From positions 1-16,720 of the forward strand of contig MRCD01000152.1 in assembly GCA_001904745.1 (NCBI GenBank): a stretch of DNA of 16,720 bases, given 5' to 3'. The translations under genes and the position numbers were made by a program. A model generated the notes under the pieces. That model was not told the origin of the DNA and ran no database searches. It saw nothing but the letters and a program-made list of their open reading frames with translations. Within the stretch, counting starts at the first letter, position 1. Each line of letters begins with the position of its first letter. Of this stretch, positions 1-14,169 are shown piece by piece. Source of the DNA: Calothrix sp. HK-06. GTDB taxonomy: Bacteria > Cyanobacteriota > Cyanobacteriia > Cyanobacteriales > Nostocaceae.

Positions 1-98
1 TACATCACTATACGCACGTTCATGACGCTTGAAAAAACTTTGCGATTTACTGAATATAGTTTGTAGCGGTGCCTATGGATGGTGGGAAGATGCTTGGT
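1..98 (+). promoter_or_regulatory. candidate promoter / oriT region upstream of the relaxase gene
   Basis: In MobV plasmids oriT normally lies just upstream of the relaxase gene. The only structure seen is an imperfect inverted repeat (tacatcactata at 1-12 versus tatagtttgta at 54-64). The window is cut at position 1, so this cannot be judged properly. Confidence 0.2.
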
Positions 99-1826
99 AT
101 GACTAACTTTGCAGTTTGCCGAATCCAAAAGATAAAAAGCTGGGCATCGCTAATTAACAGTGCGATGCACGTAGCACGCGCGCATGAAATCGAGAACGCT
201 GATTTATCAATAAAAAATGTTTCCTTAATTGATGGCGCCGACGGTAAGGACATCAAGGAAATGTTTTTAGAAAAAATCGGCACCCAGAAGATACGCTCGA
301 ATGCAGTGCTGGGCATCGAAATGCTCTTGACCGCTAGTCCCCAATACTTCCGACCTGATAATCCAGACCAAGCTGGATTCTATATCCAAGAACGAGTAGA
401 CAATTTTGCTGCTGCTTGTACCGATTGGTTACTGACTCGTTATTACGGTAAAGTTGTCCAAGCTACAATGCACTTGGATGAATCGACTCCACATATCCAC
501 GCTTATATAGTACCCCTGGATAACAGAGGAAAACTTAATGCGAAGGGATTATTCCACGGGCGCCATAAACTCTCAGAATTATTAGATAGTTTTGCCCGCG
601 CGGTTGAACACCTGGGTATCAAACGCGGAGTCAAAGGAAGCAAAGCCAAACACCTTGATATAAAAAAATATTACGCTGCTGTAAACTGCAAGTCACTCCA
701 CATTAATTTAGATGATGTACTGCCGATACCAAACGATAATCAATCGGCTTTTGCATACCGTGAGTTAATCAAAGAAATTCTCCAACCCCAACTGGATATT
801 CTGAATCATCAAATCAATGACCGTGATTTACAACTACGGGAGAAAAAACATATCGAGCAGACTGCACAAGCTAGCGAGCGCGAAAGACAAAAGTTAGAAT
901 CGCGTGTGCAAAACTTAGCCTGGACTTTAGAATTATGGCAAGCGCAAGCTAACTTGTTACGCGACTTACCTTTAGAAGAGGTCGCTTACCATTTGGGGCT
1001 GCATTTAAATAGTAAAGGAATTTGGGAGGGTAATGGTTCTTCATTACGAATAGTCGGCGCCAAGTTTTACGATTACAGCGGCGCGCAATATGGTAGTGGT
1101 GGCGCTATTGATTTGGCGATGCATTTATTGCAGTGTAACTTTCGGCAAGCTGTTGCTTGGTTACATGAAATTTTTGGAGAGTCTGATTGCTTGCGTGCAG
1201 TTACCCATCATGCTAGAGAACAAACCCAAGAAATTATCTCTACCGAACGAGTACCAGAATTTGTGGCGCCTGACAGTGACCAAAGTCGATGGCATGATGT
1301 TCGTAATTATTTAGTGGACACTCGTAAGTTACCTGGCAATTTTATAGATAATCTACATGCTGCTGGGTTGATATATAGTGACGCGCGTGCAAATGCTGTT
1401 TTTGTAATGCGGTCGATGGAAAATGAAGTTACGGGCGCCTTTTTACGTGGAACATATGGATTTAACAACACTTTCTATGGTTTAGCCAAGGGTAGTAAAC
1501 GCAGTAAAGGTTGGTTTCATTTTACTGCTGGTGGACAAGGTGAGGATAAGATAATACGCACGGTTCTTACAAAATCCCCAATTGAAGCGTTATCAATCGC
1601 AGTGCTAGACCATTCCCTACTGGAGAAAACTATATATATAGCTATTGACAGTCCTCGGTGTATGCCTGTTGAGTTCCTAAGTTACTTTAAAAATATTCTT
1701 GCTGCTTATGATAACAATGCTTCGGGGGAAGAAATAGCAGGCGCCCTCTTAAAAGTTTTACCGCAAACTACTCGACTTAAACCTTCATGCCAAGATTGGA
1801 ATCAACAGTTAATTTTGATGAGGTAA
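99..1826 (+). CDS. MobV-family (Mob/Pre) relaxase with a C-terminal DUF3991/Toprim-like domain
   Basis: The ORF is open from GTG 69. ATG 99 gives MTNFAVCRIQKIKS, a typical Mob/Pre N-terminus. HLDESTPHIHAYIVP matches the HxDExxPHxH metal-binding relaxase motif. The middle is coiled-coil (QASERERQKLESRVQNL). The C-terminal half has GSGGAIDLAMHLL..AVAWL (DUF3991-like) and KSPIEALS .. AIDSP .. AYDNNASGEE (Toprim-like acidic motifs). Confidence 0.85.
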   Translation: MTNFAVCRIQKIKSWASLINSAMHVARAHEIENADLSIKNVSLIDGADGKDIKEMFLEKIGTQKIRSNAVLGIEMLLTASPQYFRPDNPDQAGFYIQERVDNFAAACTDWLLTRYYGKVVQATMHLDESTPHIHAYIVPLDNRGKLNAKGLFHGRHKLSELLDSFARAVEHLGIKRGVKGSKAKHLDIKKYYAAVNCKSLHINLDDVLPIPNDNQSAFAYRELIKEILQPQLDILNHQINDRDLQLREKKHIEQTAQASERERQKLESRVQNLAWTLELWQAQANLLRDLPLEEVAYHLGLHLNSKGIWEGNGSSLRIVGAKFYDYSGAQYGSGGAIDLAMHLLQCNFRQAVAWLHEIFGESDCLRAVTHHAREQTQEIISTERVPEFVAPDSDQSRWHDVRNYLVDTRKLPGNFIDNLHAAGLIYSDARANAVFVMRSMENEVTGAFLRGTYGFNNTFYGLAKGSKRSKGWFHFTAGGQGEDKIIRTVLTKSPIEALSIAVLDHSLLEKTIYIAIDSPRCMPVEFLSYFKNILAAYDNNASGEEIAGALLKVLPQTTRLKPSCQDWNQQLILMR

Positions 1827-1831
1827 GTTAT

Positions 1832-2072
1832 ATGAAAGCAACAGAGTGAGAAAAAATATCCAAACATTGCTCGCTGGATAGACGAACATACTGGTTGGAT
1901 TGAGATTGGTTATAACGTTGATAGTCCTCTTAATTCTTATATCCGCGCGATTGACTGTGGTGGGATGTTTTGAGAGGGAAAGGAGAGTTACGAAACTGTA
2001 GAGGAAGCACTGCAAGATTTAAATGCTGGACTGGAAGATGTTTTAGAAGAAATTTACGGCACCGATAATTAA
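1832..2072 (+). pseudogene. decayed small conserved hypothetical gene (frameshift plus TGG-to-TGA nonsense)
   Basis: ATG 1832 reads MKATE and then hits TGA at 1847. Shifting one base continues as EKKYPNIARWIDEHTGWIEIGYNVDSPLNSYIRAIDCGGMF, then TGA at 1971-1973, then EGKESYETVEEALQDLNAGLEDVLEEIYGTDN, with stop at 2070-2072. The GGMF-stop-EG context looks like GGM(F/I)WEG with Trp TGG mutated to TGA. Recognition of the family is from memory only. Confidence 0.4.
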
Positions 2073-2093
2073 TTTTATTGAGAGGAATTTAAT

Positions 2094-2465
2094 TTATATT
2101 GTGATTGAGCCGGGAGCATCCAAAAAGATTCCCAAATGGGCCTCGCATTTGACAAATTGCTTGCTGTTCCTCAATTACTAAAGGTTCTCTATATAATTTG
2201 GTGCCATGCTTTTTAGCATAATCTACAGCTTGCTCAAATTTCTCAACGCGCTCCTTTTGCTACTTGACCTGCATTTCCAGAACGCCTGCATTTCGTCCGT
2301 AAGATGGAAAAACATTTTAATCCCGTTGATGTCAATAGCTGCTCCTCGTACTTCGTTCTCTACGTAAAAGTATTTTACTGGTAAATCTAAAAGTTGACTG
2401 TACCATTGAGCAGCTGCAACAACATCATTAACAAAATAAAATATAGCTTGAACACTCTTAAACAT
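2094..2465 (-). pseudogene. VOC / glyoxalase-bleomycin-resistance family gene broken by frameshifts
   Basis: The N-terminal part (ORF 2223-2465) reads MFKSVQAIFYFVNDVVAAAQWYSQLLDLPVKYFYVENEVRGAAIDINGIKMFFHLTDE and is VOC-like. The reading frame then degenerates. A different frame downstream encodes VEKFEQAVDYAKKHGTKLYREPLVIEEQQAICQMRGPFGNLFG, with stop at 2094-2096, resembling the usual C-terminal DPFGN.FG end of VOC proteins. Confidence 0.5.
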
Positions 2466-2471
2466 ATTTAC

Positions 2472-3011
2472 TTATTCTATTTTTTGTAGTCGGTGCCTAA
2501 ATTCCAAATCTATAATATTTCTAGCTCCTATGAACAATACAATTTCACGCTCAGTTGGAGAAAGCCAAATTTGATATAACTGTTCATCATATTCTTCGGC
2601 TTCAAGTATTGTACCTACTTCCAAATATTTACTTCCAAAAAAATCAGAATTACCAAAATGGAACTCTCCTTCTATTTTTAGTTTTGCTTGCTTCAATCGT
2701 CCGCTCGTCTTGGCTTGGTAATAAGCTTGAGACAGTTCTTCTGAACTTGTAACCTTATAAACAAACTTCTCCATTAATGTATTACATTTTTCTTCTCCTA
2801 ACTTCATCATTAACTTTGATGGTGGTGGACTTTTATAATTTGCTATTTTCTCTTCGTTATCGCCCTTCGGGCAAACTACGTTAACAGCAATCTGAACTTT
2901 TAACTTTTGAATACAATACTTTACTGCTTCTTGTACACTGATATTATGAATCTCGGCTATTTGCTTAACATGAGCAATAAGCTCAAGCTTCCGAAAAGAA
3001 TTAGATTCCAT
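2472..3011 (-). CDS. hypothetical protein (179 aa)
   Basis: An intact ORF with an ATG start and a protein-like composition. The N-terminus (ELIAHVKQIAEIHNISVQEAVKYCIQKL) could be a small DNA-binding helix pair. No family was recognised. Confidence 0.5.
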   Translation of the reverse strand: MESNSFRKLELIAHVKQIAEIHNISVQEAVKYCIQKLKVQIAVNVVCPKGDNEEKIANYKSPPPSKLMMKLGEEKCNTLMEKFVYKVTSSEELSQAYYQAKTSGRLKQAKLKIEGEFHFGNSDFFGSKYLEVGTILEAEEYDEQLYQIWLSPTEREIVLFIGARNIIDLEFRHRLQKIE

Positions 3012-3371
3012 ATTTATTGATGAATGTAAACGTCAACAAAGTATTACTATCCGCTCGCTCCAGGCACCGATTAATCCTAATTATTTTTAATTAAACTCTA
3101 AACTACAGATAAATCAAAATTTTCTCCTTTTTCCTCAACTGCATACTCTAAAACTAATCTTTTTATTTCCTTAAAGTATTTTAGGTATGTTTCTACACTT
3201 TGGAAGATATAAAAGGTGAGAAGGTTGAAGTATATAGAGACACTACTGGTATTCCACCCACAGATTATGCGCGTATCATTGGACAGCTGTTAGTAAAAGA
3301 TTACAACTTAATTTAGAACAATAAGAAAGCCTACAACTTCTTCATATTAAATTAACTTTACATACTTGGGA

Positions 3372-4028
3372 TTACTTGAGCAACCCCAATTCCATGCCAG
3401 CGATTAATTGTTGGGCAAGAGGATAAAATATTTCTGCACGTTGTTTAGTCTTAGAACTAAACCCACCATTATCAACAATTTCGCATTTAATTTCAGTTTG
3501 TCCCGGTGACTGCTGCTTTATTACAATCCTACCAAGTTTACCAAGTTCTTTGTGCGTAAACACGTAATAAAAAGTAGTACCTTCTTGTTCCTTGCGAAAG
3601 CTAACTCCCGTGGGCATCTTCATGGGGGTTAAGATGACATTGCTTATTCCTACCATATCCATTACACCGTTCGGCCGTGCGATAAATAGTTCTACTTTAG
3701 GTGGTACAACCATAACAACCACAGCTTCGTTGCTAGGGTCATATTGTTGAAGAACGCTTGCAACTTCACGCTTAAATTCGACGCTTGTCATCCACAAGGC
3801 AACTGAACTATCAGCTTGGGGCACATAAAGAAAATCTTTCCGTGGCGCCTGTAAACCCAAAATGATACCTCTATCCCATTCGCTGTATTGTGCAAGAGCT
3901 ACCTGTAACGCAACACTTCCAAACACTTGTAAAAATGGTCGGTTTGGGTCGGTATGGATTTGCACTATGCCATTTTCAATCAAATGCTTGACCGAAAAAC
4001 TAATTGGGTCATTATGTGAATCTTTCAC
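3372..4028 (-). CDS. hypothetical protein (218 aa)
   Basis: An intact ORF with a GTG start at 4028, preceded by AGGTG 5 nt upstream. No recognisable motifs. Confidence 0.55.
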   Translation of the reverse strand: MKDSHNDPISFSVKHLIENGIVQIHTDPNRPFLQVFGSVALQVALAQYSEWDRGIILGLQAPRKDFLYVPQADSSVALWMTSVEFKREVASVLQQYDPSNEAVVVMVVPPKVELFIARPNGVMDMVGISNVILTPMKMPTGVSFRKEQEGTTFYYVFTHKELGKLGRIVIKQQSPGQTEIKCEIVDNGGFSSKTKQRAEIFYPLAQQLIAGMELGLLK

Positions 4029-4344
4029 GGATACACCTAGTTAACAAAGCTTCAATCATTGTACGGTAAGCGGCGCCAACTTTATGCTACAACCTGGCTC
4101 TCTATTAGCATCGGAACAAAAACCGGGTAATCGCAGTGTTACATGAATGTTACAGAAGTAACCAAGCGCTGTTCGCAGAGCGTGCCGTTAGGCATAACCC
4201 TTGATTTATAGCTCTTGAGATTGCTTAGTAATTTATAGAGTGAGCCACCACACCCCCAATCAAATCCTTATGCAATAAGACTTTTAAGCTTAACCCGGTA
4301 ATAGTTCCAATGATGCTTCTAAGCCTTCCCATGCGAATGTCGAA

Positions 4345-5298
4345 TCACCTATTAAGTGAGTTAACACAAGTATAAATTATTCTTTTAAATCCTTGTACTT
4401 TACGCTTAGGCATTGGCTTGTTAAATTCAGAGGTTAATATTGCTAATCCCTCATTCGATACCAAATAACTCGTATTATTGATTGGGCAATTTTGTGGTGT
4501 ACGTTTTTCAATCAACGCACTACAAATATGATGCCACGGAATGGCACCAAGTAAACTAGTACATATCACCATCAGCGAAGAAGGTAAGTCTACATAATTG
4601 CATAATATATCTTGTGATTTATGCAATATCCAGCAGTAAGACATTAGAGATATTAGTATATTTTCCTTACCAGGAGTAAATACATATTGTGAAGCAAGCT
4701 GGGCACTTGATGTCTGAATGTCAAGATATTGTTTGGTAATTTGACCAATTTGTTTTTTCAATTCATAATCAACTTCAATGTTGATAAAATCGTCGTTGTA
4801 CAAATTGTTTATTGCAATATCTACTAATCCAGTAATTATATCAGTTCGCTTGCGATGCTTCCTATAAATTTCAAATATTACTGTATCGAAACTAGCCTTT
4901 CTATCATTACATGTGATGGGGAGTAGTCTTGCTATATTGTACATCATTGGTTCGCGAAATGATAATTTCTGAGGGGTGTCTGATAAACCCACAAATGTAG
5001 GTTGAATCCCAAAATCCAATATTTCAAGAAATCGCTGCCTAAACAATGCCAATGATTGTTTGCGATTTGTGTGTTTTATTGATTTGTAAACGACGCTTTT
5101 TATGTTTGACCTATCAGGACAGTCGATGCTTACACCGGGAAAGTGGCGCCAGTAAGTTCGTTTATGCTCACCGCAAGCTAAACAAATTTCTCCGAAACAC
5201 GTGCCGCATACTGGTAGTTTATCGCAATACGTTTCATAATCGGCATCGGATGCCTTTATTATATCTCCGTCAGCTATACTGAATGCTGTTACACTCAT
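4345..5298 (-). CDS. hypothetical protein with an N-terminal Cys-rich zinc-ribbon (CoiA-N-like pattern)
   Basis: 317 aa. The N-terminus CDKLPVCGTCFGEICLACGEHKRTYWRHFPGVSIDC has CxxC..CxxC, then a basic-aromatic-His segment, then Cys. This is reminiscent of the zinc-finger N-terminus of CoiA-like proteins. The rest is unrecognised. Confidence 0.55.
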   Translation of the reverse strand: MSVTAFSIADGDIIKASDADYETYCDKLPVCGTCFGEICLACGEHKRTYWRHFPGVSIDCPDRSNIKSVVYKSIKHTNRKQSLALFRQRFLEILDFGIQPTFVGLSDTPQKLSFREPMMYNIARLLPITCNDRKASFDTVIFEIYRKHRKRTDIITGLVDIAINNLYNDDFINIEVDYELKKQIGQITKQYLDIQTSSAQLASQYVFTPGKENILISLMSYCWILHKSQDILCNYVDLPSSLMVICTSLLGAIPWHHICSALIEKRTPQNCPINNTSYLVSNEGLAILTSEFNKPMPKRKVQGFKRIIYTCVNSLNR

Positions 5299-5377
5299 GT
5301 TCGCTCAATTAATAATTATTTAATTACGAACATGCGTGCATTTGCGATGATATTGATTATAAATAATTAAGCGCATG

Positions 5378-5408
5378 AAGAGGAATGTACATAGGTTGTA
5401 CACCTCTT
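5378..5408 (-). terminator. candidate hairpin terminator / regulatory stem-loop after the 5420-5971 gene
   Basis: aagagg(aa)tgtaca-taggt-tgtaca-cctctt forms about 12 bp of stem with a 5-nt loop, starting 11 nt downstream of the stop codon at 5420-5422. It lacks a clean U-tract on the minus-strand transcript. Confidence 0.3.
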
Positions 5409-5419
5409 TACTCTGTGAG

Positions 5420-5971
5420 TTAATTCAAGCAATAGTTATTAAACCAAGTTATAATTCTGTTTCGATAGGCACTAGGGCTTCTGAATGATTCAAACATTCC
5501 ATTTTTTGAATAATTTTGTATATATTCTTGCATTTGCTTTTGATGCTCAAGTAATATTTGTTCTAATTGCTCAGGAGTGATTTCTGCTTTTTGGCTGGGG
5601 TTAGCTTTTGGGTATTGTTCCCGTAGAAATTTCATTTCTGTGTTGAATTCTGTTACGTATAAATCGCATGAATATTGATTGAGTAAAAGGATGTGTGATG
5701 GCTCAGTATCATCGGAGCCAAAGTCGATATTGTAATCTGGTTTTAATTTTTGGTATGCTTTTGCTAATTCTATGCTCATACCATCATTTTTTAAAAGGGG
5801 ATAGTACACATCGTAGTAGCTGAAGGTTTTGCTCCATCCACCGTCGCTCCAAGTTGCATTTGTTGCCTGGTAAAATATCCCAATCCATTGTTTCGTTTCT
5901 TCTACCACATTTATTGCTTCTTTTAGAAATTCAGGAGCGGGAATTGAGAGTTTGTAACTATGTTCAAACAT
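5420..5971 (-). CDS. hypothetical protein (183 aa from ATG 5971)
   Basis: The ORF track starts at 6061, but that would overlap the upstream gene by 62 nt. ATG at 5969-5971 (MFEHSYKLSIP) lies 28 nt after the upstream stop codon and is the more plausible start. No family was recognised. Confidence 0.5.
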   Translation of the reverse strand: MFEHSYKLSIPAPEFLKEAINVVEETKQWIGIFYQATNATWSDGGWSKTFSYYDVYYPLLKNDGMSIELAKAYQKLKPDYNIDFGSDDTEPSHILLLNQYSCDLYVTEFNTEMKFLREQYPKANPSQKAEITPEQLEQILLEHQKQMQEYIQNYSKNGMFESFRSPSAYRNRIITWFNNYCLN

Positions 5972-5999
5972 AATGTTTTTCTTGATAGTTAATAGTTTT

Positions 6000-6692
6000 T
6001 CAATTTGTTGGCGGCATAGGTTCAACTTTATACCGTTGCCGCATGATTCTGAATAACGCAATTCTTACCTCATAGGGGTTGCGATGTGAGTGAAATGTGA
6101 AACACATCCCGTTATTTAATGCCTTTATTTCATCCGATGTTAGTGGTACATGTTCTGCATAATTTGATACTCCTTGCCTATGTGCTATTTCTACCTGTTT
6201 ATTGATGCCAGGTTTTGTTTGTAGCAATTTTAAACATTCAATGGGTATTATTTCTACCATCCAGCTACCATCCGAAGTACTGAACCAGGCGGCACCTATT
6301 TTACATCTACCAAAATTGACGTTGAGGTTGGTAGCGTGCGACTGGGCAATGTTGATGCTATCGTATTCGCCTAATGTTTTTTGATGCCACACAGTATTAA
6401 AAACTTCCCATTTCGTCGGGTTTATTGTACTTTGTCGTACCATGTAACGAGCAGGTGTAGGCGCCAATAGTTGTGTGTCAACCCAAGTGTAGTAATCTTC
6501 CCCTATATACACAGCATGAATAAATGCGCGATTTTTTGATTCGTTTTTATGCAGAATCTCTACTTCGTACCCGTGCGCGAGGGCGACTGGTGTACCATCA
6601 CAAACCCAGGTGTTAGAGTTATCTATGTCTCCATCATATTCGGGGTAAGCGATATTGAGTTTCAAAGTTACCCATACTTTACTTTCACGCAT
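6000..6692 (-). CDS. hypothetical protein (230 aa)
   Basis: An intact ORF with ATG at 6690-6692, preceded by an extremely AT-rich leader. No family was recognised. Confidence 0.55.
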   Translation of the reverse strand: MRESKVWVTLKLNIAYPEYDGDIDNSNTWVCDGTPVALAHGYEVEILHKNESKNRAFIHAVYIGEDYYTWVDTQLLAPTPARYMVRQSTINPTKWEVFNTVWHQKTLGEYDSINIAQSHATNLNVNFGRCKIGAAWFSTSDGSWMVEIIPIECLKLLQTKPGINKQVEIAHRQGVSNYAEHVPLTSDEIKALNNGMCFTFHSHRNPYEVRIALFRIMRQRYKVEPMPPTN

Positions 6693-6967
6693 ATTTTTAT
6701 TAAAATTATTATTAATATAATTGTGTGAGCAATAACGATTTTATTAATATAAGTTATATTATATAAATCGATAGGGTCACATGCTATAACCGCAGCCAAT
6801 TCATTGATAAAATAAAATTCATGTTTACCTTCGTTATCCTCGATTACCAGCATATTGTCTACGTCGTAGTCGATTGAAGAATAACCATAAAGATAGATAA
6901 CTGGCGCCAGTTTAATATTTTTCAATAAGGGCGAAGGTTTGGGGACATTATGGTTAAAGCGCATCAT
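6668..6967 (-). CDS. possible small hypothetical protein (99 aa)
   Basis: The first ~70 aa look protein-like (APVIYLYGYSSIDYDVDNMLVIEDNEGKHEFYFINELAAVIACDPIDLY). The tail (AHTIILIIILIKICVKVKYG) is a translation of the AT-rich leader of the next gene, so the true 3' end is uncertain. Confidence 0.35.
   Translation of the reverse strand: MMRFNHNVPKPSPLLKNIKLAPVIYLYGYSSIDYDVDNMLVIEDNEGKHEFYFINELAAVIACDPIDLYNITYINKIVIAHTIILIIILIKICVKVKYG
6709..6752 (-). promoter_or_regulatory. AT-rich leader with a 12-nt direct repeat upstream of the 6000-6692 gene
   Basis: TTATTAATATAA occurs at 6709-6720 and 6741-6752, a 32-nt period, in an almost pure A/T stretch just upstream of ATG 6692. It is a possible promoter or operator, but low sequence complexity makes chance repetition likely. 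Confidence 0.2.
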
Positions 6968-7168
6968 CTTAATTACGTGTATACTTATGACGTATTTTAT
7001 ACTATAATTGTTTGATTATGATTAGCCACGTTAGTAAAATAAGTACCAGTTAAATTAGGTTACATAACTAGCGCTTATTGAATTACGTGATGGTACTGTC
7101 AAATAATGTTTTTTGTTAGCAATTTATCAATTGCTACCATACCATTGGATTCTGCTATTTTTGGTACC

Positions 7169-8047
7169 TTAAGCATAACAATTGAAAATATTTGTTTGAA
7201 TTGTCAATTCGTCGATATTTTGAGCATAGGCGATTGAAATTGCAGGGTCACGACTATTTTGATATTTACTACCCTTACTACCGCTAAGTTGACCACTTGC
7301 TGAGTCAGCACTGAATAGCAACCCAATAATTAAATTATCATCAAGCTGCCTTTTTGATAGTCCATAGCCATGTAGTTTTATATCGGGTCGCTGCATTTTT
7401 ATTGAAGTCAGTATCGAAAAGACTTCACTGTTTGGGCGCCGTTTTAACCCCCCAACCCCGACCCAGGCATTTTGCTGAATAGTATCACCGTATTGTGAAA
7501 GATGACAATTGTAGTCTGCTGCTGTTTTACCTTGTAGTATAGGTATTACATACGGGAGGTCACGTTCATCAAACTCCTCACAAACTTGGTCGTAGATATC
7601 CAGTAATTCATAATCACATTCCTCGTCAGCATACTCCATGAAACTCGCATGAAGCTCCACCATTGCTTCAAGATGAATATCTTTCAGGTGCTTTTTGATC
7701 TTATGGTATCGATGTATTGTTAAACGTTGATGTGCAGGGACATCGAGTTTTGTGAAATCAATTACCTCATCGAAGCATGGGTAGTCCTGGGTAGAGGCGC
7801 CGACGAGAGAACCACCCACTAACTTACTATTCAGGGCCCATTTATATATAGTACTTGCATATTTTTTTGTGGATGGGTAGGGTTTACCATTGAGTAGTCG
7901 CGTAAATCCGCAATCTAGCAACCAATCTTTGACGGGAAAGGTGGATTTACGATGTTCAATGCGATTGTAGGAAATGCATACTCTTAAAAAATCGCGTGTG
8001 CCCGATTTACCGCAGTTTGGCTGATTCCAGCCAGGAAAAAACAGCAT
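7169..8047 (-). CDS. DpdA-like TGT-fold protein (putative DNA-guanine / 7-deazaguanine transglycosylase)
   Basis: 292 aa. The ordered motifs match my memory of the DpdA / tRNA-guanine transglycosylase superfamily:
- MLFFPGWNQPN at the N-terminus;
- VCISYNRIEHRKSTF;
- WLLDCGFTRL, in place of the usual LDSGGF substrate-Asp motif;
- VIPILQGKTAADY, the (P)V(L/V)QG motif;
- VGVGGLKRRP;
- IKLHGYGLS, the LHGFG motif;
- FSADSAS, the SADS(M)AW motif.
ATG at 8045-8047. No HMM or structure search was possible. Confidence 0.6.
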   Translation of the reverse strand: MLFFPGWNQPNCGKSGTRDFLRVCISYNRIEHRKSTFPVKDWLLDCGFTRLLNGKPYPSTKKYASTIYKWALNSKLVGGSLVGASTQDYPCFDEVIDFTKLDVPAHQRLTIHRYHKIKKHLKDIHLEAMVELHASFMEYADEECDYELLDIYDQVCEEFDERDLPYVIPILQGKTAADYNCHLSQYGDTIQQNAWVGVGGLKRRPNSEVFSILTSIKMQRPDIKLHGYGLSKRQLDDNLIIGLLFSADSASGQLSGSKGSKYQNSRDPAISIAYAQNIDELTIQTNIFNCYA

Positions 8048-8741
8048 TATGTGTTTGGAGATAAGATTTAATGGCGTTTGCGATAAACTCTGCCAACTTC
8101 ACGGGTACGGCATTACCAATCATTTCTTCTAAATTAGTGTTTGTTTCATTACTGAAATCAAAGTTTGACGGGAATGTTTGAATCGCCGCACGTTCAAACG
8201 TAGTCAGTGGTCGTAGTTTTGAATTAATAGGCGCCGTATCACTTGGATGACCCTTATAACCCGGTGGTATCGGTCGATTCGTTCCCCGAATTGTGGGCGA
8301 TGGTTCCGAAATACTGAATACTGCTCGCCTTTTATAACTGCGTGCGTGTCTATAATAATGTTCGATGTTGAGACTATCGCCAAAATAATCACGCACCGTC
8401 ATTGGTTTGAATGACAATCCTGCGTTTAAATAGGGTAGTAACTCATGGTCGGCACCATTGAGTACACCCACACAGATGTAACGTTGCCTGTTTTGGGGTA
8501 CTCCACAATATGCGGCATTGAATACTTTTTCAGTTAATCCATATTTATTACGTTTTAATATTTCGATAACTTGTTTATATTTTTTGCTTTTTTGATAGCG
8601 TTCAACATTTTCCATTACGAATATTGATGGTTGAATGTATTCAATTAATTCAGCAAACCTGATACTCAAATCTCCGCGACCACTATCTTCATTACGGGAG
8701 CCAGCAGAGCTAAAATCTTGGCAAGGTGAATTATGTTTATT
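8007..8741 (-). pseudogene. 5'-truncated DNA (cytosine-5) methyltransferase remnant (motifs IV-X only)
   Basis: The frame is open from the stop at 8742-8744 and reads NKHNSPCQDFSSAGSRNEDSGRGDLSIRFAELIEYIQPSIFVMENV..GVPQNRQR..PSPTIRG..QTFP..GNAVPV. It is collinear with residues ~80-320 of the intact paralog at 9059-10045, roughly 60% identical by eye. Motifs I-III, including the FxGxG SAM-binding loop, are missing. Homology starts at the PCQ codons (~8721-8729). The start in the ORF track is only a TTG (an internal Leu of DLSIRF). Confidence 0.8.
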
Positions 8742-9058
8742 CTACAACGTAAAATCCGCCTCAAAAAGTAATTATAATTATACCTTCTACAAAGTAAGCC
8801 ATTGAAAAACCAATTTTATATTTTTTTAATTATTGAAGAAAATTCTAGGGAGGTCGGCGCCTGGAGCATTAGAGTTTTAGGCTTGACCTTCACTCTCAAT
8901 ACCATGCTTGTTCTTTAACGCACGGCTTGTTAAAGTTATTAGATTCAACAACCGCCTCGTATTTCTCATTAACAAGACTCCTTTTTTGTTAACTTTGCTT
9001 TCTGGGCATCGCAAGCTCCGTTCCTATATGGAACACAGTGAAAGACATTAACTTATTA

Positions 9059-10045
9059 CTAAATTTGTAAGCTAGGTACTAACTGTGTTGATTGCATTTG
9101 TTTAACATTCAACTCAATGTTATCTTTCATATATTGGAGCAAGCATCTTGCAAAAAACTCAGCTAACTTAACAGGTACAGCATTAGCAATCATTTGTTCT
9201 AAATCAGTTTTCGATTGGCTTTTTTCATCAAAATCAAAACTTTTGGGAAATGTTTGTATGTAGCTTCGCTCAATAGTAGTTAATGGACGTAAATCAGGAG
9301 TGAGAGGCGCCGCATCACCAGGATGTAATTTATAAGTTTTAGGAATTGGTCGGTTTACCCCTCTGATTGTAGGACTAGGTTCATCAATACTAAATATACC
9401 TCGTCTTTGATAAGTTCTAGGATGCCTGTAGTAATATTCAAGACCCAGCCTGTTTCCTAAATAATGCCTGATTGTAGTTGGTTCTTTGGATAAATTATAG
9501 TTTATGTATGGAATTAATGCGTTATCAATACCGTTTAATTCTCCTATACAAAAATATCTTTTTCTACTTTGAGGAACTCCGCAAAATGCTGCATTAATTA
9601 TTTTTTCTGTCAACCCATAACCACTATTTTTAAATATATTGATAACTTGGTTATATTTCTGGCTTTTTTGAAACCTATCTACATTTTCCATTACAAACCA
9701 TTTAGGTTTGACCGAAGCAATTATTTTAGCAAACGTGATACTCAAATCACCTCTTCCTAAATTCTCATTGCGCTTCCCGACACTTGAGAAGTCTTGACAA
9801 GGTGGACCAGAAATAATAATATCAGGTTTGAAACTGGTAAAATCATTATAATCGTTTAAATTGCCTAAGTCACAATTATAAATTTCATGCAAGAAGTTCT
9901 TTCTATAAATTTGTATTGCTGGCTCCCAGTTATCAAAAGCTGCTACTATTTTAAAACCTACATTTTGAAACCCTAGAGATAGTCCACCACAGCCAGCGAA
10001 TAAATCAATAGCTCTTAAACTTATCTCATGTGTTTTATTGCTCAT
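9059..10045 (-). CDS. DNA (cytosine-5) methyltransferase, intact
   Basis: 328 aa with the full set of C5-MTase motifs:
- I: IDLFAGCGGLSLGF
- IV: GPPCQDFS
- VI: ENV
- VIII: QSRKR
- TRD with PSPTIRG
- IX: QTFP
- X: ANAVPV. Confidence 0.9.
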   Translation of the reverse strand: MSNKTHEISLRAIDLFAGCGGLSLGFQNVGFKIVAAFDNWEPAIQIYRKNFLHEIYNCDLGNLNDYNDFTSFKPDIIISGPPCQDFSSVGKRNENLGRGDLSITFAKIIASVKPKWFVMENVDRFQKSQKYNQVINIFKNSGYGLTEKIINAAFCGVPQSRKRYFCIGELNGIDNALIPYINYNLSKEPTTIRHYLGNRLGLEYYYRHPRTYQRRGIFSIDEPSPTIRGVNRPIPKTYKLHPGDAAPLTPDLRPLTTIERSYIQTFPKSFDFDEKSQSKTDLEQMIANAVPVKLAEFFARCLLQYMKDNIELNVKQMQSTQLVPSLQI

Positions 10046-10165
10046 TTTAGTCTATAAACCTTAAAGATATTTTGTTGCCTAAATAATACCATAAAATGTT
10101 CGGATAAAACTGGGATTTTACAGAATAAAATTATCCGTATTAAATTTTAAATTTTGATGATTAAG

Positions 10166-11479
10166 CTAATCTTTGTAATTAGAAAATTTACCAATACTAG
10201 GGTCAAATACTACCTTACAAGTATCTGTTACGCCATTTCTGTTTTTAGCGACTATTATCTCCATAATTCTTTTATCACTAGTATTTGAGTTGTAATATTC
10301 ATCTCGATAAAGTAGTAGTCCTAAATCCATATCCTGTTCAATATCGCCAGAATCTTTAATATCAGCCATAGAAGGACGTTTATTACTTTGACCTTCTACA
10401 CCACGATTGATTTGAGCAAGAACTACAAATGGGACATTAAATATTTTAGCAATATCTTTACAAGCCCCACAATATTTACCAATGGCTTGCGCTCTATTTC
10501 CTGCTGCTCTATCCCCAAGCTTTTGAATATAGTCTAATACTACTAATCCTAATTCTCCTTTTTCAGATTCTACTCTACGAAGTGCAGAACGAATTTTAGT
10601 GGGGGTTAGCTCACCTGCTGGAGTATCATCAATTATAATCGGTAATTCAGATAGATTAGATAAACCTTTTACTAAAGAATCATATTCCTCCTCATAAATT
10701 AGATTGTGCATCAGCCTTTGGGAATCAATACCTGTGTGCATAGAGAGGAACCTTTTAGTTAGTTGTTCCTCAGACATTTCTGCACTAAAAAACAATACTG
10801 GCTTATGGATACTGCTTGCAATATAATTAGCCAGATAACAGCCAAACCAGCTTTTACCCATAGATGGTCTAGCAGCAACTACAATTAAGTCTTGTTTAAT
10901 TAAGCCACCAATTAGAGTATCTAAGCCTGTTAAACCTGTAGGGTAAGCAGGAGACGAACCCTGCTCTATCCTATTCAATAAATTAGCTAAACACTCATTA
11001 ATGGGTTTAGGTTGGAATTTAGTTTTATTGTTAGTTGTAATATTAAATAGTTTTTGTTCAGATTGCTCAAATATTTGTTCTAATTCCGTACTAGTATCGC
11101 ATCCTAAATCTACTATTGTATGTCCTACTGATACTAATTGACGGCGTTGGTATTTATCCAGTACTAGGGCAGCGTAATGGTCTATATTTACTGCTGATAC
11201 AGCCCGGTTAAGAAGTTGAGATAATTTAGTGTCACCTCCTACTTTTTCTAAAAGTTTATGGTCAGCCAGCCAAGTAGAAACAGTCATTAAATCTGTTTGT
11301 TTATTATTTTGATATAGCAGTAAAGCTGCTTTATAAATTTGTTGATGACCATGAGTACAAAAAGATTCTACAGGAAGTATGTCAGCAAGTATACCCATAG
11401 CATTGGGGTCAAGTAAAATACATCCCAATATGGCTTCTTCAGCTTCGATATTTCCTAAAAACTGATTACTCTTCGACAT
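10166..11479 (-). CDS. dnaB: replicative DNA helicase DnaB
   Basis: 437 aa. The DnaB N-terminal signature is NIEAEEAILGCILLDPNAM. Walker A is ARPSMGKSWF and Walker B is LVVLDYIQ. The RecA-like C-terminus has LAQINRGVEGQSNKRPSMADIKDSGDIEQDMDL. There is no intein. The start overlaps the upstream gene by 14 nt. Confidence 0.9.
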   Translation of the reverse strand: MSKSNQFLGNIEAEEAILGCILLDPNAMGILADILPVESFCTHGHQQIYKAALLLYQNNKQTDLMTVSTWLADHKLLEKVGGDTKLSQLLNRAVSAVNIDHYAALVLDKYQRRQLVSVGHTIVDLGCDTSTELEQIFEQSEQKLFNITTNNKTKFQPKPINECLANLLNRIEQGSSPAYPTGLTGLDTLIGGLIKQDLIVVAARPSMGKSWFGCYLANYIASSIHKPVLFFSAEMSEEQLTKRFLSMHTGIDSQRLMHNLIYEEEYDSLVKGLSNLSELPIIIDDTPAGELTPTKIRSALRRVESEKGELGLVVLDYIQKLGDRAAGNRAQAIGKYCGACKDIAKIFNVPFVVLAQINRGVEGQSNKRPSMADIKDSGDIEQDMDLGLLLYRDEYYNSNTSDKRIMEIIVAKNRNGVTDTCKVVFDPSIGKFSNYKD

Positions 11480-12350
11480 TTGTTTTGTTAAATAAGTTGC
11501 TAAGTTGTTTGAGTTTATCCTGTGAAATTAATTTCTTTTGGTTATCTTGTATAACCACTGAAGATTGATTTGATGTTAATGGTGTCGATTGTTCACGAAT
11601 GTTAGGCTGTGCTTCGTCACGTATCATTGATAGTAAACAAGCAGCAGGATTTTCTACATTAGTTTTACTACTATACTCTTGAAAAGCTTCAATTGATAAC
11701 TTAACTTTATGATATTCGCGGCTGACTATTTCCTGCTTTAGTTTTGAATTAATCTTAATTCCCATTTCGTTGATTAATTGAAATATATCTAAGTTTTCTG
11801 ATTGAACATTCTTCTCATGAATTTCTCTGGTTATATAAATATCAGTTGTAGAGGAACTTGTATTAGATTGATTTACTCTTATAGGGACTATTTTTTTATC
11901 AGAGTGAACAGGAACTACCTCTCGTAATTGTGAGCGTAAACGTTCGCACTCGTCTCTAAGTTCGTAAATTTCTGCTACATGACCTCTAAGTTTTTCATTT
12001 TGATGTTTAAGTTCCCTAACCTCTGTTTCTAGTTCTCTAATTCTTTGCTTGGCAACTTCATGTAAAGTTTTAAGGCTATGGGGTCTTGGGTCTTTTTGTT
12101 CTAACGTATTTAATGTAGACTCCTTTTCATGTTGAATTTCGTGTATATATACTTTAATTTCATCCCATTTATAGAGATAAGAAATAGAACATCCTGCAAC
12201 ATTAGCAATCGAAGCAAATGTCAATGGTTGTTTTTGAGCAAGTATTTCTTGAATTGCTTTTAATACTTGCTCTTTTTTTTGTTCCTTTTTTTGGGCTTGA
12301 GTGCGACGCAGAACTTCAGCTTGTTTATCGCGATTATGATTTTTAACCAT
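11466..12350 (-). CDS. HTH plus coiled-coil protein, TnpC/DUF6262-like accessory protein of Tn554-type recombinase modules
   Basis: 294 aa. The basic N-terminus is followed by a probable HTH (PLTFASIANVAGCSISYLYKW) and then a strong heptad coiled coil (IRELETEVRELKHQNEKLRGHVAEIYELRDECERLRSQL). It overlaps both neighbours (8 nt and 14 nt). The family assignment is from memory of proteins found next to paired Tn554-like integrases. Confidence 0.5.
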   Translation of the reverse strand: MVKNHNRDKQAEVLRRTQAQKKEQKKEQVLKAIQEILAQKQPLTFASIANVAGCSISYLYKWDEIKVYIHEIQHEKESTLNTLEQKDPRPHSLKTLHEVAKQRIRELETEVRELKHQNEKLRGHVAEIYELRDECERLRSQLREVVPVHSDKKIVPIRVNQSNTSSSTTDIYITREIHEKNVQSENLDIFQLINEMGIKINSKLKQEIVSREYHKVKLSIEAFQEYSSKTNVENPAACLLSMIRDEAQPNIREQSTPLTSNQSSVVIQDNQKKLISQDKLKQLSNLFNKTNVEE

Positions 12351-14169
12351 TTGTTAAATCTCTTAATTGTGGTAGCCATTTATCCATTGCCTCGATAGTG
12401 GCTCTGGCTTCTTCTTTCGCTAGTTCAGCACCTGCTTGTCCTGCTTCTTCTAGTCTTTGATGTTCTCCTTTATACTGGCGTTCGTAGAGAGGTAATTTAG
12501 CTGTGCTAGGACGAAAACTAGAACAGCCATAGCATTTAGGGTAAAGATTAATAGGACAGGGCGTTTTGGGTTCAAGAACACAGTGTCCATAAACTACTAA
12601 GCGTGGGGCTATTTCGAGGTCAAGTTCGTGTGCTTTAGAATTTTTAATTAGGCTTTCTGGTAAAGTTTGCCAAGGAAGGAACTTGTTATCAGGGTTCATT
12701 AACAGTTCCTGAAAAGGCAAGTCTACTGCTGCTACCTGCTCCCTAGTAGGGGGTGCATAGTTTTGAAAAGTAGTACTACTTATTGTATGGTCAGCATAAA
12801 GTTTAGCAGCTTCAATACCGTATTTTACACGTATTTCTTGCAATCTGTTGTGGCGAGTAATTTTACCTGTAAAATGAGGTCTTTGCCCGTTGGTATCACG
12901 GATGTTTTCTTTTTCTATAAGTAAACGAATAATGCATACCATTGTATTTTCCTTGACATTTACACGGGGTGGAATTGGTAAGGGTTTCATGTTAGTAAAG
13001 GCTGGGTAAGAATCATTTTTTACATTTATAAAATGACAAAACAGATATGGATACTCTAACTCCAATGTTTGTCTTATCCATTGCTGTTGTTCTTCAATTA
13101 TTTTTCTAATTTCACGAGTGGCAGGTATTTGATGCCATCGCTTAGTTTTATGTTGATAAAATTTAATATACCATTTTTGATTTTCTTCCACTAAGCAATC
13201 AAATAACAATTGGCAAATATCTCCTGGACGAGCAGCAGTATACTCCTGTATTAAGTAATGACAAGCAATAAATGCAGGAATTTTAGATAGATTATTTTGA
13301 ATGGATGTGCGCGTTACTTCATCCAACCAGTCTGGGTCATTTTTAATTTCTTTGAGGTAATCACGCCGACGAATTAAGTATGATGAATTAAGCCCTAACC
13401 ATTCAAAAAAACATTTTAGATAGCTTAGTTTGTGATTGATGGTTTTATTGTCGCAATCCTTATAGTTATCTAAAAAACTTAGCAAGGCTTCGCGGCTAAT
13501 ATCGGTAGCTTCTTTGATGTTGAAATTTTCTACAATTTGTCCAAACTGCTTTAAATTTGTTAGAGAGTGTCTAATTCCTGACGGAGCAGAATAAGCTCTC
13601 GATTTGAGTAAGTATTGTATATAGTTTTTAACCTCTAATTTATACCATTGTGGTAAAACTTTTTGAAAATTAATTGATTGTGGATAAGGATTATCGTAGA
13701 AATGTCTTAAATCCCAAATATCATCATCTAAATAGAAAGGCGGCAATTTATTTTTTGTTTTGCCATCTATCCAACTTCGACAAAACGTTGAATTAAGTTC
13801 AAAGCTAGTACCGCAAAAGTGACAATGACACTTTTCTCGTGTATGTTTTGTTGTATAAATCCACCCTTTTTGTCCATTATATCCTACTTCATTACAAACA
13901 GGATTAGGACATTCTATATCAGGACGATAGTTGCAAGTATAGGTAGGAACTGAAGAAGTTAGAGATACCCACTTTTCACAATTACTACACATAAATCTAA
14001 TCTTACATTTTGAAGTGTCTTTAAAATAAGTTTTCTTAAGATTACTTTTCTGACAGTTTGGGCAAATAAATTCGCCTTTATAATCCTTCTCCCAATCCAC
14101 CTTTAATTGTCCGTGTAAAGTAGGATGAATAGAGATAGTAGAAGATTGTTGTTTAGTCATTAAATTCAC
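12343..14169 (-). CDS. tyrosine recombinase-like protein 3, with N-terminal zinc ribbons and a C-terminal Cys cluster
   Basis: 608 aa. The GTG start at 14167-14169 overlaps the upstream TGA (GTGA); an alternative ATG is at 14160. The N-terminus has CPNCQ..CSNCEKW and CPNPVC..CHCHFCG. The recombinase-like core has AARPGDICQL (Arg), TRHNRLQ (a degenerate HxxR box) and ADHTISSTTFQNY (His..Tyr). The C-terminus has CVLEPKTPCPINLYPKCYGC. Confidence 0.65.
   Translation of the reverse strand: MNLMTKQQSSTISIHPTLHGQLKVDWEKDYKGEFICPNCQKSNLKKTYFKDTSKCKIRFMCSNCEKWVSLTSSVPTYTCNYRPDIECPNPVCNEVGYNGQKGWIYTTKHTREKCHCHFCGTSFELNSTFCRSWIDGKTKNKLPPFYLDDDIWDLRHFYDNPYPQSINFQKVLPQWYKLEVKNYIQYLLKSRAYSAPSGIRHSLTNLKQFGQIVENFNIKEATDISREALLSFLDNYKDCDNKTINHKLSYLKCFFEWLGLNSSYLIRRRDYLKEIKNDPDWLDEVTRTSIQNNLSKIPAFIACHYLIQEYTAARPGDICQLLFDCLVEENQKWYIKFYQHKTKRWHQIPATREIRKIIEEQQQWIRQTLELEYPYLFCHFINVKNDSYPAFTNMKPLPIPPRVNVKENTMVCIIRLLIEKENIRDTNGQRPHFTGKITRHNRLQEIRVKYGIEAAKLYADHTISSTTFQNYAPPTREQVAAVDLPFQELLMNPDNKFLPWQTLPESLIKNSKAHELDLEIAPRLVVYGHCVLEPKTPCPINLYPKCYGCSSFRPSTAKLPLYERQYKGEHQRLEEAGQAGAELAKEEARATIEAMDKWLPQLRDLTNG

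Follow-up and report, generated by a model that had tools for sequence, protein, structure and literature searches.

A gene on a plasmid fragment of Calothrix sp. HK-06 encodes a DpdA-family protein that stands alone, with no DpdB or preQ0-synthesis gene beside it. The fragment is contig MRCD01000152.1 of assembly GCA_001904745.1, and the window, by which we mean the whole stretch of DNA analysed, covers 16,720 nt. Judged from sequence profiles and a structure model, the 292-residue product is a TGT-fold protein belonging to the short subfamily of Orion gp20 (phrog_1279). By analogy with known DpdA enzymes, we lean modestly towards a working phage-type DNA guanine transglycosylase that acts without partners and putatively uses host preQ0. 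The features of the window are collected in Table 1.

Table 1. Features located in the 16,720-nt window.
Feature	Position (nt)	Strand	Remarks
Relaxase gene	69–1826	plus	Mob_Pre + DUF3991 + Toprim-like (Pfam)
16 dispersed GGCGCC hexamers	234–9311		Lineage-wide HIP-type signature
Block of three genes (230, 213, 317 aa)	4345–6692	minus	Downstream, syntenic; context only
DpdA-like ORF, Orion-type short solitary DpdA	7169–8047	minus	ATG start, 292 aa; TGT fold predicted
S246-A247-D248-S249	7301–7312	minus	Aligns with Rosebush SVDS, CAjan SCDS, Orion TADS
Acidic helical insertion, residues 118–164 (47 aa)	7556–7696	minus	Clade-specific
Q87-D88, predicted base-recognition Asp	7784–7789	minus	After strand E79-84 in the model; Orion gp20 QDW
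D45-C46-G47-F48	7904–7915	minus	Clade form of DSG(A/G)F; aligns with Rosebush/CAjan DSGAF, Orion DSGGF
C5-cytosine DNA methylase remnant, 5'-truncated	8007–8728	minus	PF00145, profile positions 93–323 only
Full-length C5-cytosine DNA methylase paralog, 328 aa	9059–10045	minus	PF00145 E 7e-65; PADLOC MTase_II PDLC03270 E 5e-142

Family assignment and fold

The original prediction took the product for a DpdA-like, TGT-fold protein from seven motifs in DpdA order. All seven are present in the ORF in that order, and the profile-HMM and AlphaFold/Foldseek searches that had been suggested as a check place the protein with TGT and DpdA. Its score for Pfam PF23859 (DpdA) is 39.2 bits, where the curated threshold is 27 (E 5.4e-10), and phrog_1279 ('queuine tRNA-ribosyltransferase') is matched with an E value of 1.3e-22, both well beyond chance. 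PF23859 is the only Pfam family matched, and searches of NCBIfam and PADLOC gave no match for the protein. Among the candidates scored, a profile of the clade picks up 4,557 proteins, with PF23859 in all of the 120 listed, and an exhaustive search yields 1,321 representatives. No close clade members were found in IMG/VR.

The AF2 model (pLDDT 92, pTM 0.89) comprises eight beta-alpha units. In Foldseek against the PDB all of the best 50 matches listed are TGT (E ~4e-5, probability 1.00), with the enzymes of Z. mobilis and E. coli as the closest solved fold. The best match in BFVD is the 'queuine tRNA-ribosyltransferase' of mycobacteriophage Bella96 (E 7.7e-14, TM 0.70). Family and fold evidence together rule out placing the protein among restriction endonucleases or in another unrelated family.

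Both the TGT fold and the annotation of phage homologs as 'queuine tRNA-ribosyltransferase' could suggest a tRNA-guanine transglycosylase that acts on tRNA. This is extremely improbable, since those phage annotations are older than the recognition of DpdA (PMC6884629), and the TGT Pfam family PF01702 gives no match. With 292 residues, the protein lacks the Zn subdomain, the N-terminal beta-lid, the C-terminal tRNA-binding region and the other tRNA-binding elements of TGT, and among the TGT matches listed the TM-score is just 0.45–0.55 at 11–15% identity.

The closest likeness is to Orion gp20, which aligns by hhalign with 99.9% probability over 214 columns (E 1.9e-35) and by BLASTP with 27% identity (E 3e-17). 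The validated DpdA Rosebush gp2 aligns by hhalign with 92.5% probability (E 4.8e-7), and CAjan DpdA with an E value of 5.8e-5. In the Rosebush and CAjan alignments the motifs D-S-G-x-F, V-G-x-G, H-G-x-G and S-x-D-S are in register, and the middle region of the protein aligns unreliably. A tblastn search with the CAjan and Rosebush proteins found no similarity to the DpdA-like protein, so that this likeness exists at the profile level only. Neither phmmer nor the family profile reaches the bDpdA and TGT crystal-structure sequences in the PDB, which counts against an active DNA transglycosylase.

Predicted active site and features of the clade

Conservation was counted in alignment A2 of 57 diverse family members. 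D45, G47, Q172, G197, H226 and D248 are invariant (57/57), while F48, Q87 and D88 are conserved in 56 of the 57. Conservation of the catalytic Asp residues, another of the checks suggested earlier, is thus complete for D45 and D248. By analogy with Asp95 and Phe99 of the Salmonella Montevideo DpdA (bDpdA; PMC10164549), D45 is predicted to serve as general acid/base and F48 as the aromatic residue that stacks on the base. D248 is the predicted catalytic nucleophile, comparable with Asp256 of bDpdA (PMC10164549). It was reported that mutation of the bDpdA residues matching the two Asp abolishes activity (PMC10164549). D88 would correspond to Asp130 of bDpdA and Asp156 of TGT, an equation drawn from its position after strand E79-84 of the model.

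The replacement of the usual DSGGF motif by DCGF, pointed out in the original prediction, holds and is specific to the clade. The D-S-G-A-F of the wider family becomes D-C-G-F through a Ser to Cys change plus a one-residue deletion; position 46 is Cys in 9 and Ser in 48 of the 57 sequences. Also specific to the clade is the insertion of residues 118–164, modelled as helices with pLDDT 78–98. It holds 16 D/E versus 4 K/R (net −12), compared with 19 D/E versus 29 K/R in the remaining protein, and it is missing from P0012 and from the family members of about 250 residues. The Cys residues are at positions 12, 24, 46, 91, 144, 156, 181 and 290, among which only C91 is conserved. The structural Zn2+ site (Cys3His) that is conserved in TGT and bDpdA has no counterpart, there being no C-terminal cluster in the window protein. 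The DCG-F loop, the acidic insertion and the missing Zn site all depart from the family, and they weigh against the preferred reading as a preQ0-using DNA transglycosylase.

Gene neighbourhood on the plasmid fragment

The gene had been placed on a mobilisable element. This is borne out by the Mob_Pre relaxase gene and by the closest records of the window, which are MOBV-typed Calothrix plasmids; the relaxase gene has 90% DNA identity to that of a 'plasmid recombination enzyme' on the Calothrix PCC 7716 plasmid. The DpdA-like gene is also solitary in the window, as had been claimed. Pfam, NCBIfam and PADLOC searches of the neighbouring ORFs detected no preQ0-pathway gene, dpdB or dpdC-K, and no ParB-like, DpdC or helicase/nuclease dpd gene occurs in the window. 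A tblastn search of the window with FolE, QueD, QueE, QueC and ParB of CAjan and Rosebush found nothing.

Two C5-cytosine methylase ORFs, unmentioned in the original prediction, lie immediately upstream of the DpdA-like gene. The nearer one is a remnant. It lacks motif I, its frame opening only shortly ahead of motif IV (PCQ), and it ends within the DpdA-like ORF, overlapping the start codon by 41 nt. The remnant is 99% identical to the C-terminal 220 residues of a full-length 317-residue methylase in Calothrix NIES-4105/4071. The second, full-length methylase is a paralog with about 59–62% identity to the remnant and to the intact homolog of the remnant. Alignment of the methylase to M.HaeIII and M.HhaI covers the catalytic domain only.

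The adjacency of methylase and DpdA is conserved across three Calothrix plasmids. Together with the 41-nt stop/start overlap this is typical of R-M operons, and the DpdA-like protein might be a toxic or 'restriction' partner of the methylase, a TGT-fold glycosylase hitting unmethylated sites in a glycosylase-type R-M module. Such a role is very improbable. In NIES-4105 the methylase survives while DpdA is broken, whereas in the window and in PCC 7716 DpdA is intact while the methylase is broken, a combination that a true R-M pair could not survive unless the paralog took over. Clade members at loci L002, L004, L008 and L099 have no methylase neighbour, and the wider family goes with YhhQ rather than with methylases, a C5 methylase being found within 8–10 kb in only 13/78 and 6/80 of its loci.

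Downstream of the gene, the block of three genes gives no Pfam, NCBIfam, PADLOC or PHROG match. The block recurs in loci L102, L001 and L012, and its 317-residue gene recurs in L099 and L004-6. The 317-residue protein belongs to a 13-cluster family without a Pfam domain; its model (pLDDT 70.5) finds no fold match with E <1. The gene turns up as well on contigs where no DpdA is visible, and we rejected it as a demonstrated DpdA partner. The downstream genes of P0004 (201, 258, 255, 334 and 169 aa) and of P0006/P0008 (293 and 333 aa) were likewise considered as conserved partners and rejected, for they are not homologous to the neighbours in the window.

Integrity and expression of the gene

The DpdA-like gene is intact and under purifying selection. 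Both the window and PCC 7716 have an unbroken ORF. The dN/dS ratio between these two copies is 0.094, equal for both gene halves, and it is 0.087 for the clade pair P0006 and P0008; the range of 0.09–0.12 over both gene halves and independent clade pairs indicates long-term purifying selection. The methylase-DpdA module as a whole is decaying in every copy seen, namely those of the window, NIES-4105 (DpdA gene interrupted by an IS) and PCC 7716 (methylase frameshifted), and this counts against the preferred reading. So does the fact that no promoter can be assigned: in a promoter and terminator scan, promoter-like sites are at chance level (18 versus 14.9 expected). The same scan found no terminator-like site between the gene and the full-length methylase upstream, so that read-through transcription is possible.

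The decay of the module raises the question of whether the gene is a passenger relic, an intact ORF with little or no expression in HK-06 and no current role on the plasmid. The 5' third of the upstream methylase is gone, so that no native promoter and no translational coupling can be left from it; the broken NIES-4105 and PCC 7716 copies and the chance level of promoter-like sites fit such a relic. So does the public annotation of Calothrix sp. HK-06, where the gene is called as just 156 residues, a 'hypothetical protein', a miscall made by two annotation pipelines. The relic is nevertheless doubtful, given the low dN/dS over both gene halves and independent clade pairs, the intact ORF in two plasmids and the possible read-through.

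The GGCGCC palindrome

The window was said to be enriched in GGCGCC, and it is: 16 sites are present versus 0.97 expected, a count reached by 0/200 shuffles. All 16 sites fall in nt 1–9311 and none in nt 9312–16720. The further suggestion, offered as speculation, of a link between the palindrome and the DpdA-like enzyme finds no support. GGCGCC replaces HIP1 throughout the genomes of the Calothrix PCC 7103/D253 lineage (Elhai 2015, PMC4390886), and in the same work two m5C methylases of GrCGyC specificity and a repair bias, not DpdA, account for it (PMC4390886). The window shares with that lineage the GGCGCC excess, the absence of HIP1 and the presence of m5C methylase genes. HIP1 (GCGATCGC) has no site in the window or in the NIES-4105 and PCC 7716 plasmids, and GGCGCC is spread over unrelated genes of these plasmids, with 31 sites in 23 kb of NIES-4105 and 31 sites in 20.9 kb of PCC 7716.

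It is hardly probable, then, that the enzyme hypermodifies G specifically in GGCGCC and that the enrichment is linked to it. The hexamer does hold GGC on both strands, which is one of two target motifs of CAjan DpdA (PMC10484667), and all three GGCGCC-rich Calothrix plasmids examined carry the methylase-DpdA module. Against these stand the lineage-wide signature and its coverage of unrelated genes, the zero sites in nine loci with 62–66% identical DpdA homologs, and the persistence of the enrichment in NIES-4105 despite the IS-inactivated copy. The GGCGCC richness is a lineage quirk, not evidence of the enzyme target, and a tempting but false link is removed.

Some other short palindromes are scarce. 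The window has 1 GATC versus 41.7 expected and 3 GGCC versus 27.3 expected, and GATC and CGATCG are almost missing from the window and from the NIES-4105 and PCC 7716 plasmids. The scarcity of GATC and GGCC is counted as restriction pressure on the window DNA, in favour of a modification enzyme.

Related loci and the putative inserted base

The solitary position of the gene was thought unusual, but the whole subfamily is alike. None of 160 related loci has dpdB, and que genes are missing from 159 of them; the single exception has queE-folE-queC close by. Neighbour clustering over 78 genome loci revealed no universal partner, only SSB-like, GcrA-like and RadC-like neighbours. Among phages, 76 'DpdA-only' members form the largest group in Hutinet et al. 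2019, with a proposed reliance on host preQ0 (PMC6884629). In 10 of the 160 loci a co-oriented YhhQ/Vut_1 gene (PF02592) abuts the DpdA homolog. A YhhQ-type preQ0/preQ1 transporter and que neighbours suggest that the wider family, at any rate, handles 7-deazaguanine bases.

The Orion gp20 type ('group 3, DpdA only' of Hutinet et al. 2019) is the same subfamily, with about 250–290 residues and the same motif order; as in the window, it has no que genes or DpdB-like partner nearby and lies on mobile DNA. Orion gp20 differs in having DSGGF and a C-terminal C...HxHCxxC, in place of the DCG-F, the missing Cys cluster and the 47-residue acidic insertion of the window protein. The Orion copy is in a phage of an actinobacterium without preQ0, the present copy on a cyanobacterial plasmid, where, unlike Orion's, it has an operon-like fusion to an m5C methylase gene. 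Orion, the only member of the short subfamily tested, had no 7-deazaguanine in its DNA, which was attributed to a host without preQ0 (PMC6884629). Modification by short-subfamily members is so far putative, and this argues against the preferred reading.

The protein may instead be an active TGT-fold enzyme with other chemistry, inserting CDG, ADG, preQ1, 7-deazaguanine or a non-deazapurine, or carrying out only a glycosylase-type excision. Although no modification was seen in Orion DNA, the Orion-type gene persists in 361 mycobacteriophage records, in hosts without a preQ0 pathway, and DpdA3 was already proposed to use non-preQ0 substrates (PMC10516641). The Ser to Cys change, the loss of one residue ahead of the stacking Phe in the loop that begins with the Asp, the missing Zn site and the acidic insertion could also fit. 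We regard other chemistry as unlikely, because the pocket residues common to preQ0-inserting DpdAs are all conserved, and because 10 relatives have an adjacent YhhQ-type transporter and 1 has queE/folE/queC. A bolder proposal, which we hold only tentatively and rather doubt, is that the Orion-type short subfamily as such, the Calothrix plasmid clade with its DCG-F loop, missing Zn site and acidic insertion included, is not a preQ0 inserter. It would exchange or excise a different base, and in Calothrix the overlapping m5C methylase would be its partner in a two-layer marking of plasmid DNA. Chemistry other than preQ0 insertion would account for the retention of the gene by hundreds of mycobacteriophages whose hosts make no preQ0.

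Proposed mechanism

The absence of DpdB and preQ0-synthesis neighbours makes a stand-alone enzyme that works on host or salvaged preQ0 the best reading, and here we agree with the original prediction. By analogy with TGT and bacterial DpdA, D45 would protonate the target guanine, and D248 would attack C1' and displace the base to give a covalent enzyme-DNA intermediate, which a free 7-deazaguanine base would resolve. This base would most likely be preQ0 from a putative queuosine pathway of the Calothrix host, because the element carries no synthesis genes. Replicated DNA would in this way come to carry dPreQ0, with no DpdB ATPase taking part, and the plasmid would probably benefit by shielding its own DNA against restriction in recipient cells. 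We infer in this way the catalytic activity, the inserted base, any sequence motif, the host supply of preQ0, the expression and the anti-restriction role.

Such a path has precedents. It was reported that phage 9g DpdA alone puts dPreQ0 into plasmid DNA in E. coli from host preQ0, and that in Rosebush 28% of G is replaced by dPreQ0 (PMC6884629). Phage DpdAs accompanied by preQ0-pathway genes (Rosebush gp2, CAjan, 9g, iggy) share the TGT-like barrel, the catalytic motifs and the Gly-rich loops. The window enzyme is expected, by analogy, to work like the Rosebush/CAjan type, in a post-replicative exchange of guanine for preQ0 without the DpdC-K machinery. Unlike the window protein, these enzymes have 306–385 residues, stand beside folE/queD/queE/queC (with a ParB-like gene in Rosebush), and have an activity and target motifs (GA, GGC) that are experimentally established. 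The bDpdA of the Salmonella Montevideo dpd cluster shares with the window protein the Pfam family name and the proposed two-Asp double displacement (PMC10164549). In contrast, it needs the DpdB ATPase, belongs to an 11-gene dpdA-K cluster, binds structural Zn and has four insertions for DNA binding; all of these are missing here.

Significance

The annotation of the Calothrix gene is to be corrected from a 156-residue 'hypothetical protein' to a 292-residue DpdA-family protein. Since hundreds of phages were already known to carry lone DpdAs of this type, the window gene is an incremental addition to the family, not a new system. Lone DpdA genes are the largest phage DpdA group and the least understood. 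Calothrix sp. HK-06 / NIES-2101 can be cultured and would be a natural test case if the host has a queuosine pathway, with an intact relative of the gene in PCC 7716. This test case bears on whether lone DpdAs write 7-deazaguanines into DNA from host precursors, and on whether plasmids, besides phages, use such modification as armour against restriction.

Reading frame and selection

The minus-strand ORF encodes a protein of 292 residues from an ATG start, and it contains, in order, all seven motifs on which the original prediction of a DpdA (DNA guanine transglycosylase) was based. The HK-06 annotation has at this place OKH33442.1, a hypothetical protein of 156 residues starting at the internal Met137 of the frame. 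BDA76094.1 on the PCC 7716 plasmid, also a 'hypothetical protein', comprises the same C-terminal 156 residues. The half bearing the catalytic Asp45 is left out of both public annotations. Compared with the PCC 7716 copy, dN/dS is 0.088 for codons 1–136 and 0.118 for codons 137–292. Strong purifying selection acts alike on both halves; therefore, the full 292-residue frame is a real gene. That it is an unexpressed relic is rather improbable.

Features of the window and of related loci
Feature	Position	Strand or remark
Relaxase, Mob_Pre + DUF3991 + Toprim-like fusion, 585 aa	69-1826	plus
Three genes of unknown function (230, 213, 317 aa)	4345-6692	minus; also 746-3310 of contig L102
DpdA-like gene	7169-8047	minus
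m5C methylase remnant, 5'-truncated, opens at motif IV	8007-8728	minus
Full-length paralogous m5C methylase, upstream of remnant	9059-10045	minus
DnaB helicase	10166-11479	
DUF6262	11466-12350	
Three tandem tyrosine recombinases	12343-14169, 14166-15608, 15608-16720	last runs off the window
NIES-4105 plasmid, IS	L001 11358-12881	
NIES-4105 plasmid, methylase	L001 13305-14258	
PCC 7716 plasmid, methylase	L012 7088-7995	
PCC 7716 plasmid, BDA76094.1	L012 8406-8876	
Orion gp20	L098 2867-3643	
DpdA with queE-folE-queC	L135 7968-15343	IMG/VR viral contig
YhhQ abutting DpdA homolog	L049 1783-3260; L068 9427-10732; L073; L077; L123; L140; L145; L149; L150; L164	co-oriented

Family, fold and active site

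PF23859 (DpdA) is the sole Pfam match of the protein (39.2 bits vs a gathering score of 27), and the PHROGs match is phrog_1279, 'queuine tRNA-ribosyltransferase' (E 1.3e-22); NCBIfam and PADLOC scans gave no match. The close clade comprises just 12 clusters at 58–85% identity and one at 31%. Its profile pulls 4,557 proteins of about 250 residues among the scored candidates, PF23859 is present in all 120 relatives among the matches listed, and an exhaustive HMMER pass yields 1,321 representatives at 50% identity.

The AlphaFold2 model, computed from 57 sequences, is a beta/alpha barrel (pLDDT 92, pTM 0.89). The best 50 Foldseek matches in the PDB are all tRNA-guanine transglycosylases (TGT; E ~4e-5, TM 0.45–0.55), and among viral structures a mycobacteriophage protein labeled 'queuine tRNA-ribosyltransferase' ranks first (E 7.7e-14, TM 0.70). 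Sequence profiles searched against the PDB did not reach TGT or bDpdA, the DpdA of Salmonella Montevideo. A role as a tRNA TGT is very improbable. Profile comparison matches Orion gp20 with 99.9% probability (E 1.9e-35), Rosebush gp2 with 92.5% (E 4.8e-7), and CAjan DpdA at E 5.8e-5; D-S-G-x-F, V-G-x-G, H-G-x-G and S-x-D-S are in register in all three phage alignments. Rosebush DNA carries dPreQ0 in place of 28% of G (PMC6884629). The predicted DpdA-like TGT fold is thus borne out by family, model and phage alignments, and an unrelated family, e.g., a restriction endonuclease, is excluded by the family and fold evidence.

D45, G47, Q172, G197, H226 and D248 are invariant in the 57-sequence alignment, and F48, Q87 and D88 are conserved in 56 of the 57, which answers the question raised earlier about the catalytic aspartates. 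By analogy, D45 would correspond to Asp95 (acid/base) and D248 to Asp256 (nucleophile) of Salmonella DpdA, in which mutation of either residue abolishes exchange (PMC10164549). The DCGF remarked on earlier is a true clade difference: the loop reads D-C-G-F instead of the family D-S-G-A-F, with Ser replaced by Cys and one residue deleted. Residues 118–164 form a helical insertion of 47 residues, 16 acidic and 4 basic, whereas the remainder of the protein is net basic. TGT and bDpdA have a structural zinc site (PMC10164549). Orion gp20 keeps a C-terminal C...HxHCxxC (GC...HVHCGNC), whereas the alignment reveals no Cys/His cluster for such a site in the clade protein. At the place of the Orion cluster, K-Y-x-N-x-N-x-P stands in the short family of cyanobacteria and proteobacteria; therefore, the putative zinc site was lost within the subfamily.

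Neighboring genes

The DpdA-like gene begins 41 nt within the ORF of the m5C methylase remnant, which shares about 59–62% identity with its full-length paralog. In NIES-4105 the start-overlapping methylase is full length and 99% identical to the remnant, and an IS with a 1.5-kb transposase gene splits the NIES-4105/NIES-4071 DpdA-like gene near codon 38. PCC 7716 has an open DpdA-like frame next to a frameshifted methylase. No methylase flanks the gene in other clade members. The pairing is a Calothrix-subclade feature, each copy decaying in a different way, and an R-M-like role as the toxic partner is highly unlikely. According to Elhai (PMC4390886), Calothrix PCC 7103, which is rich in GGCGCC, is alone in having two GrCGyC m5C methylases, and the present pair may be related to these.

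The three-gene block is syntenic in several contigs, and its products have no match in Pfam, NCBIfam, PADLOC or PHROG. The 317-residue protein has an N-terminal zinc-ribbon-like CxxC...CxxC...H motif, belongs to a family of 13 clusters from cyanobacterial-type contigs only, and gave no domain or fold match. The relaxase is 90% identical in DNA to the PCC 7716 plasmid gene and 53% in protein to that of NIES-4105. Window 2116–2467, holding an 80-residue ORF (2223–2465), matches at 79% identity a stretch of a Nostoc commune HK-02 plasmid that carries a hypothetical-protein annotation.

7-Deazaguanine functions at related loci

No que genes, dpdB or dpdC-K were found within the window. FolE, QueD, QueE, QueC and Rosebush-type ParB are absent from 80 genome loci covering 1.33 Mb, with flanks of at most 10 kb, and 1 of 80 IMG/VR loci (1.03 Mb) has queE-folE-queC on the DpdA strand. 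This locus, L135, the only one of the 160 with such a pairing, places the cluster 4–7 kb downstream of a short-family DpdA. Neighbor clustering revealed no universal partner, only SSB-like, GcrA-like and RadC-like genes. The gene is solitary as predicted, but this is not unusual: 159 of the 160 loci lack the que cluster, and 76 'DpdA-only' phages were already known as the largest group, with reliance on host preQ0 proposed (Hutinet et al. 2019, PMC6884629). The 9g DpdA alone places dPreQ0 into plasmid DNA in E. coli (PMC6884629).

With the CAjan homolog ('putative preQ0 transporter') as query, a YhhQ/Vut_1 (PF02592) gene was found abutting the DpdA homolog in 10 of 160 loci. The ten belong to several lineages; the two genes overlap by 4 nt in L049 and are 20–80 bp apart in the others. 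YhhQ is a preQ0/preQ1 importer. Such abutment is independent evidence, from gene context, that the family works with free 7-deazaguanine bases obtained from outside the element. No description of this 'salvage plus insertion' two-gene module was found in the literature searched.

GGCGCC and other word biases

The noted GGCGCC enrichment is real, with 16 sites vs 0.97 expected, many inside ORFs, all in 1–9311, and without wider shared context. Its proposal as the target of the enzyme is unsupported: the NIES-4105 and PCC 7716 plasmid stretches each have 31 sites across unrelated genes, and nine loci with 62–66% identical homologs have none. GGCGCC-specific modification is accordingly a most doubtful reading. 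In the Calothrix PCC 7103/D253 lineage the hexamer takes the place of HIP1 throughout the genome, and Elhai connects it with biased repair and with two m5C methylases that can methylate it (PMC4390886). Both plasmid stretches lack HIP1; the whole window lacks HIP1 and CGATCG.

The 7.4 kb of 9312–16720 is free of GGCGCC (P ~3e-6 at local density), which marks the DnaB/DUF6262/recombinase half as recently acquired; it looks like a recombinase-trio mobile element. GATC (1 vs 41.7 ± 5.8 expected) and GGCC (3 vs 27.3 ± 5.1) are strongly avoided, consistent with heavy restriction pressure on this mobile DNA. The lone GATC (7697–7700) and one GGCC (7835–7838) lie inside the DpdA-like gene. CCWGG raw counts, with no expectation computed, are 16 in 1–9400 and 3 in 9401–16720.

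Proposed function

We infer the activity of the short subfamily. Orion, its only tested member, had no 7-deazaguanine in its DNA, ascribed to a host without preQ0 (PMC6884629), yet 361 mycobacteriophage records retain the gene, a combination consistent with another chemistry, which we consider unlikely but not negligible. The best explanation, slightly more likely than not, is a functional stand-alone phage-type DpdA, which would replace guanine in plasmid DNA by preQ0 from the host, or by a base closely derived from it, plausibly benefiting the plasmid by anti-restriction. Of the original proposal, the family, the catalytic aspartates and the lack of partners stand; the GGCGCC link and the unusual solitude do not. 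The IS-split NIES-4105/NIES-4071 copy provides a natural knock-out strain for comparison. The protein is a plasmid-borne cyanobacterial member of a known DpdA kind, with a variant catalytic loop, an acidic insertion and no zinc site.
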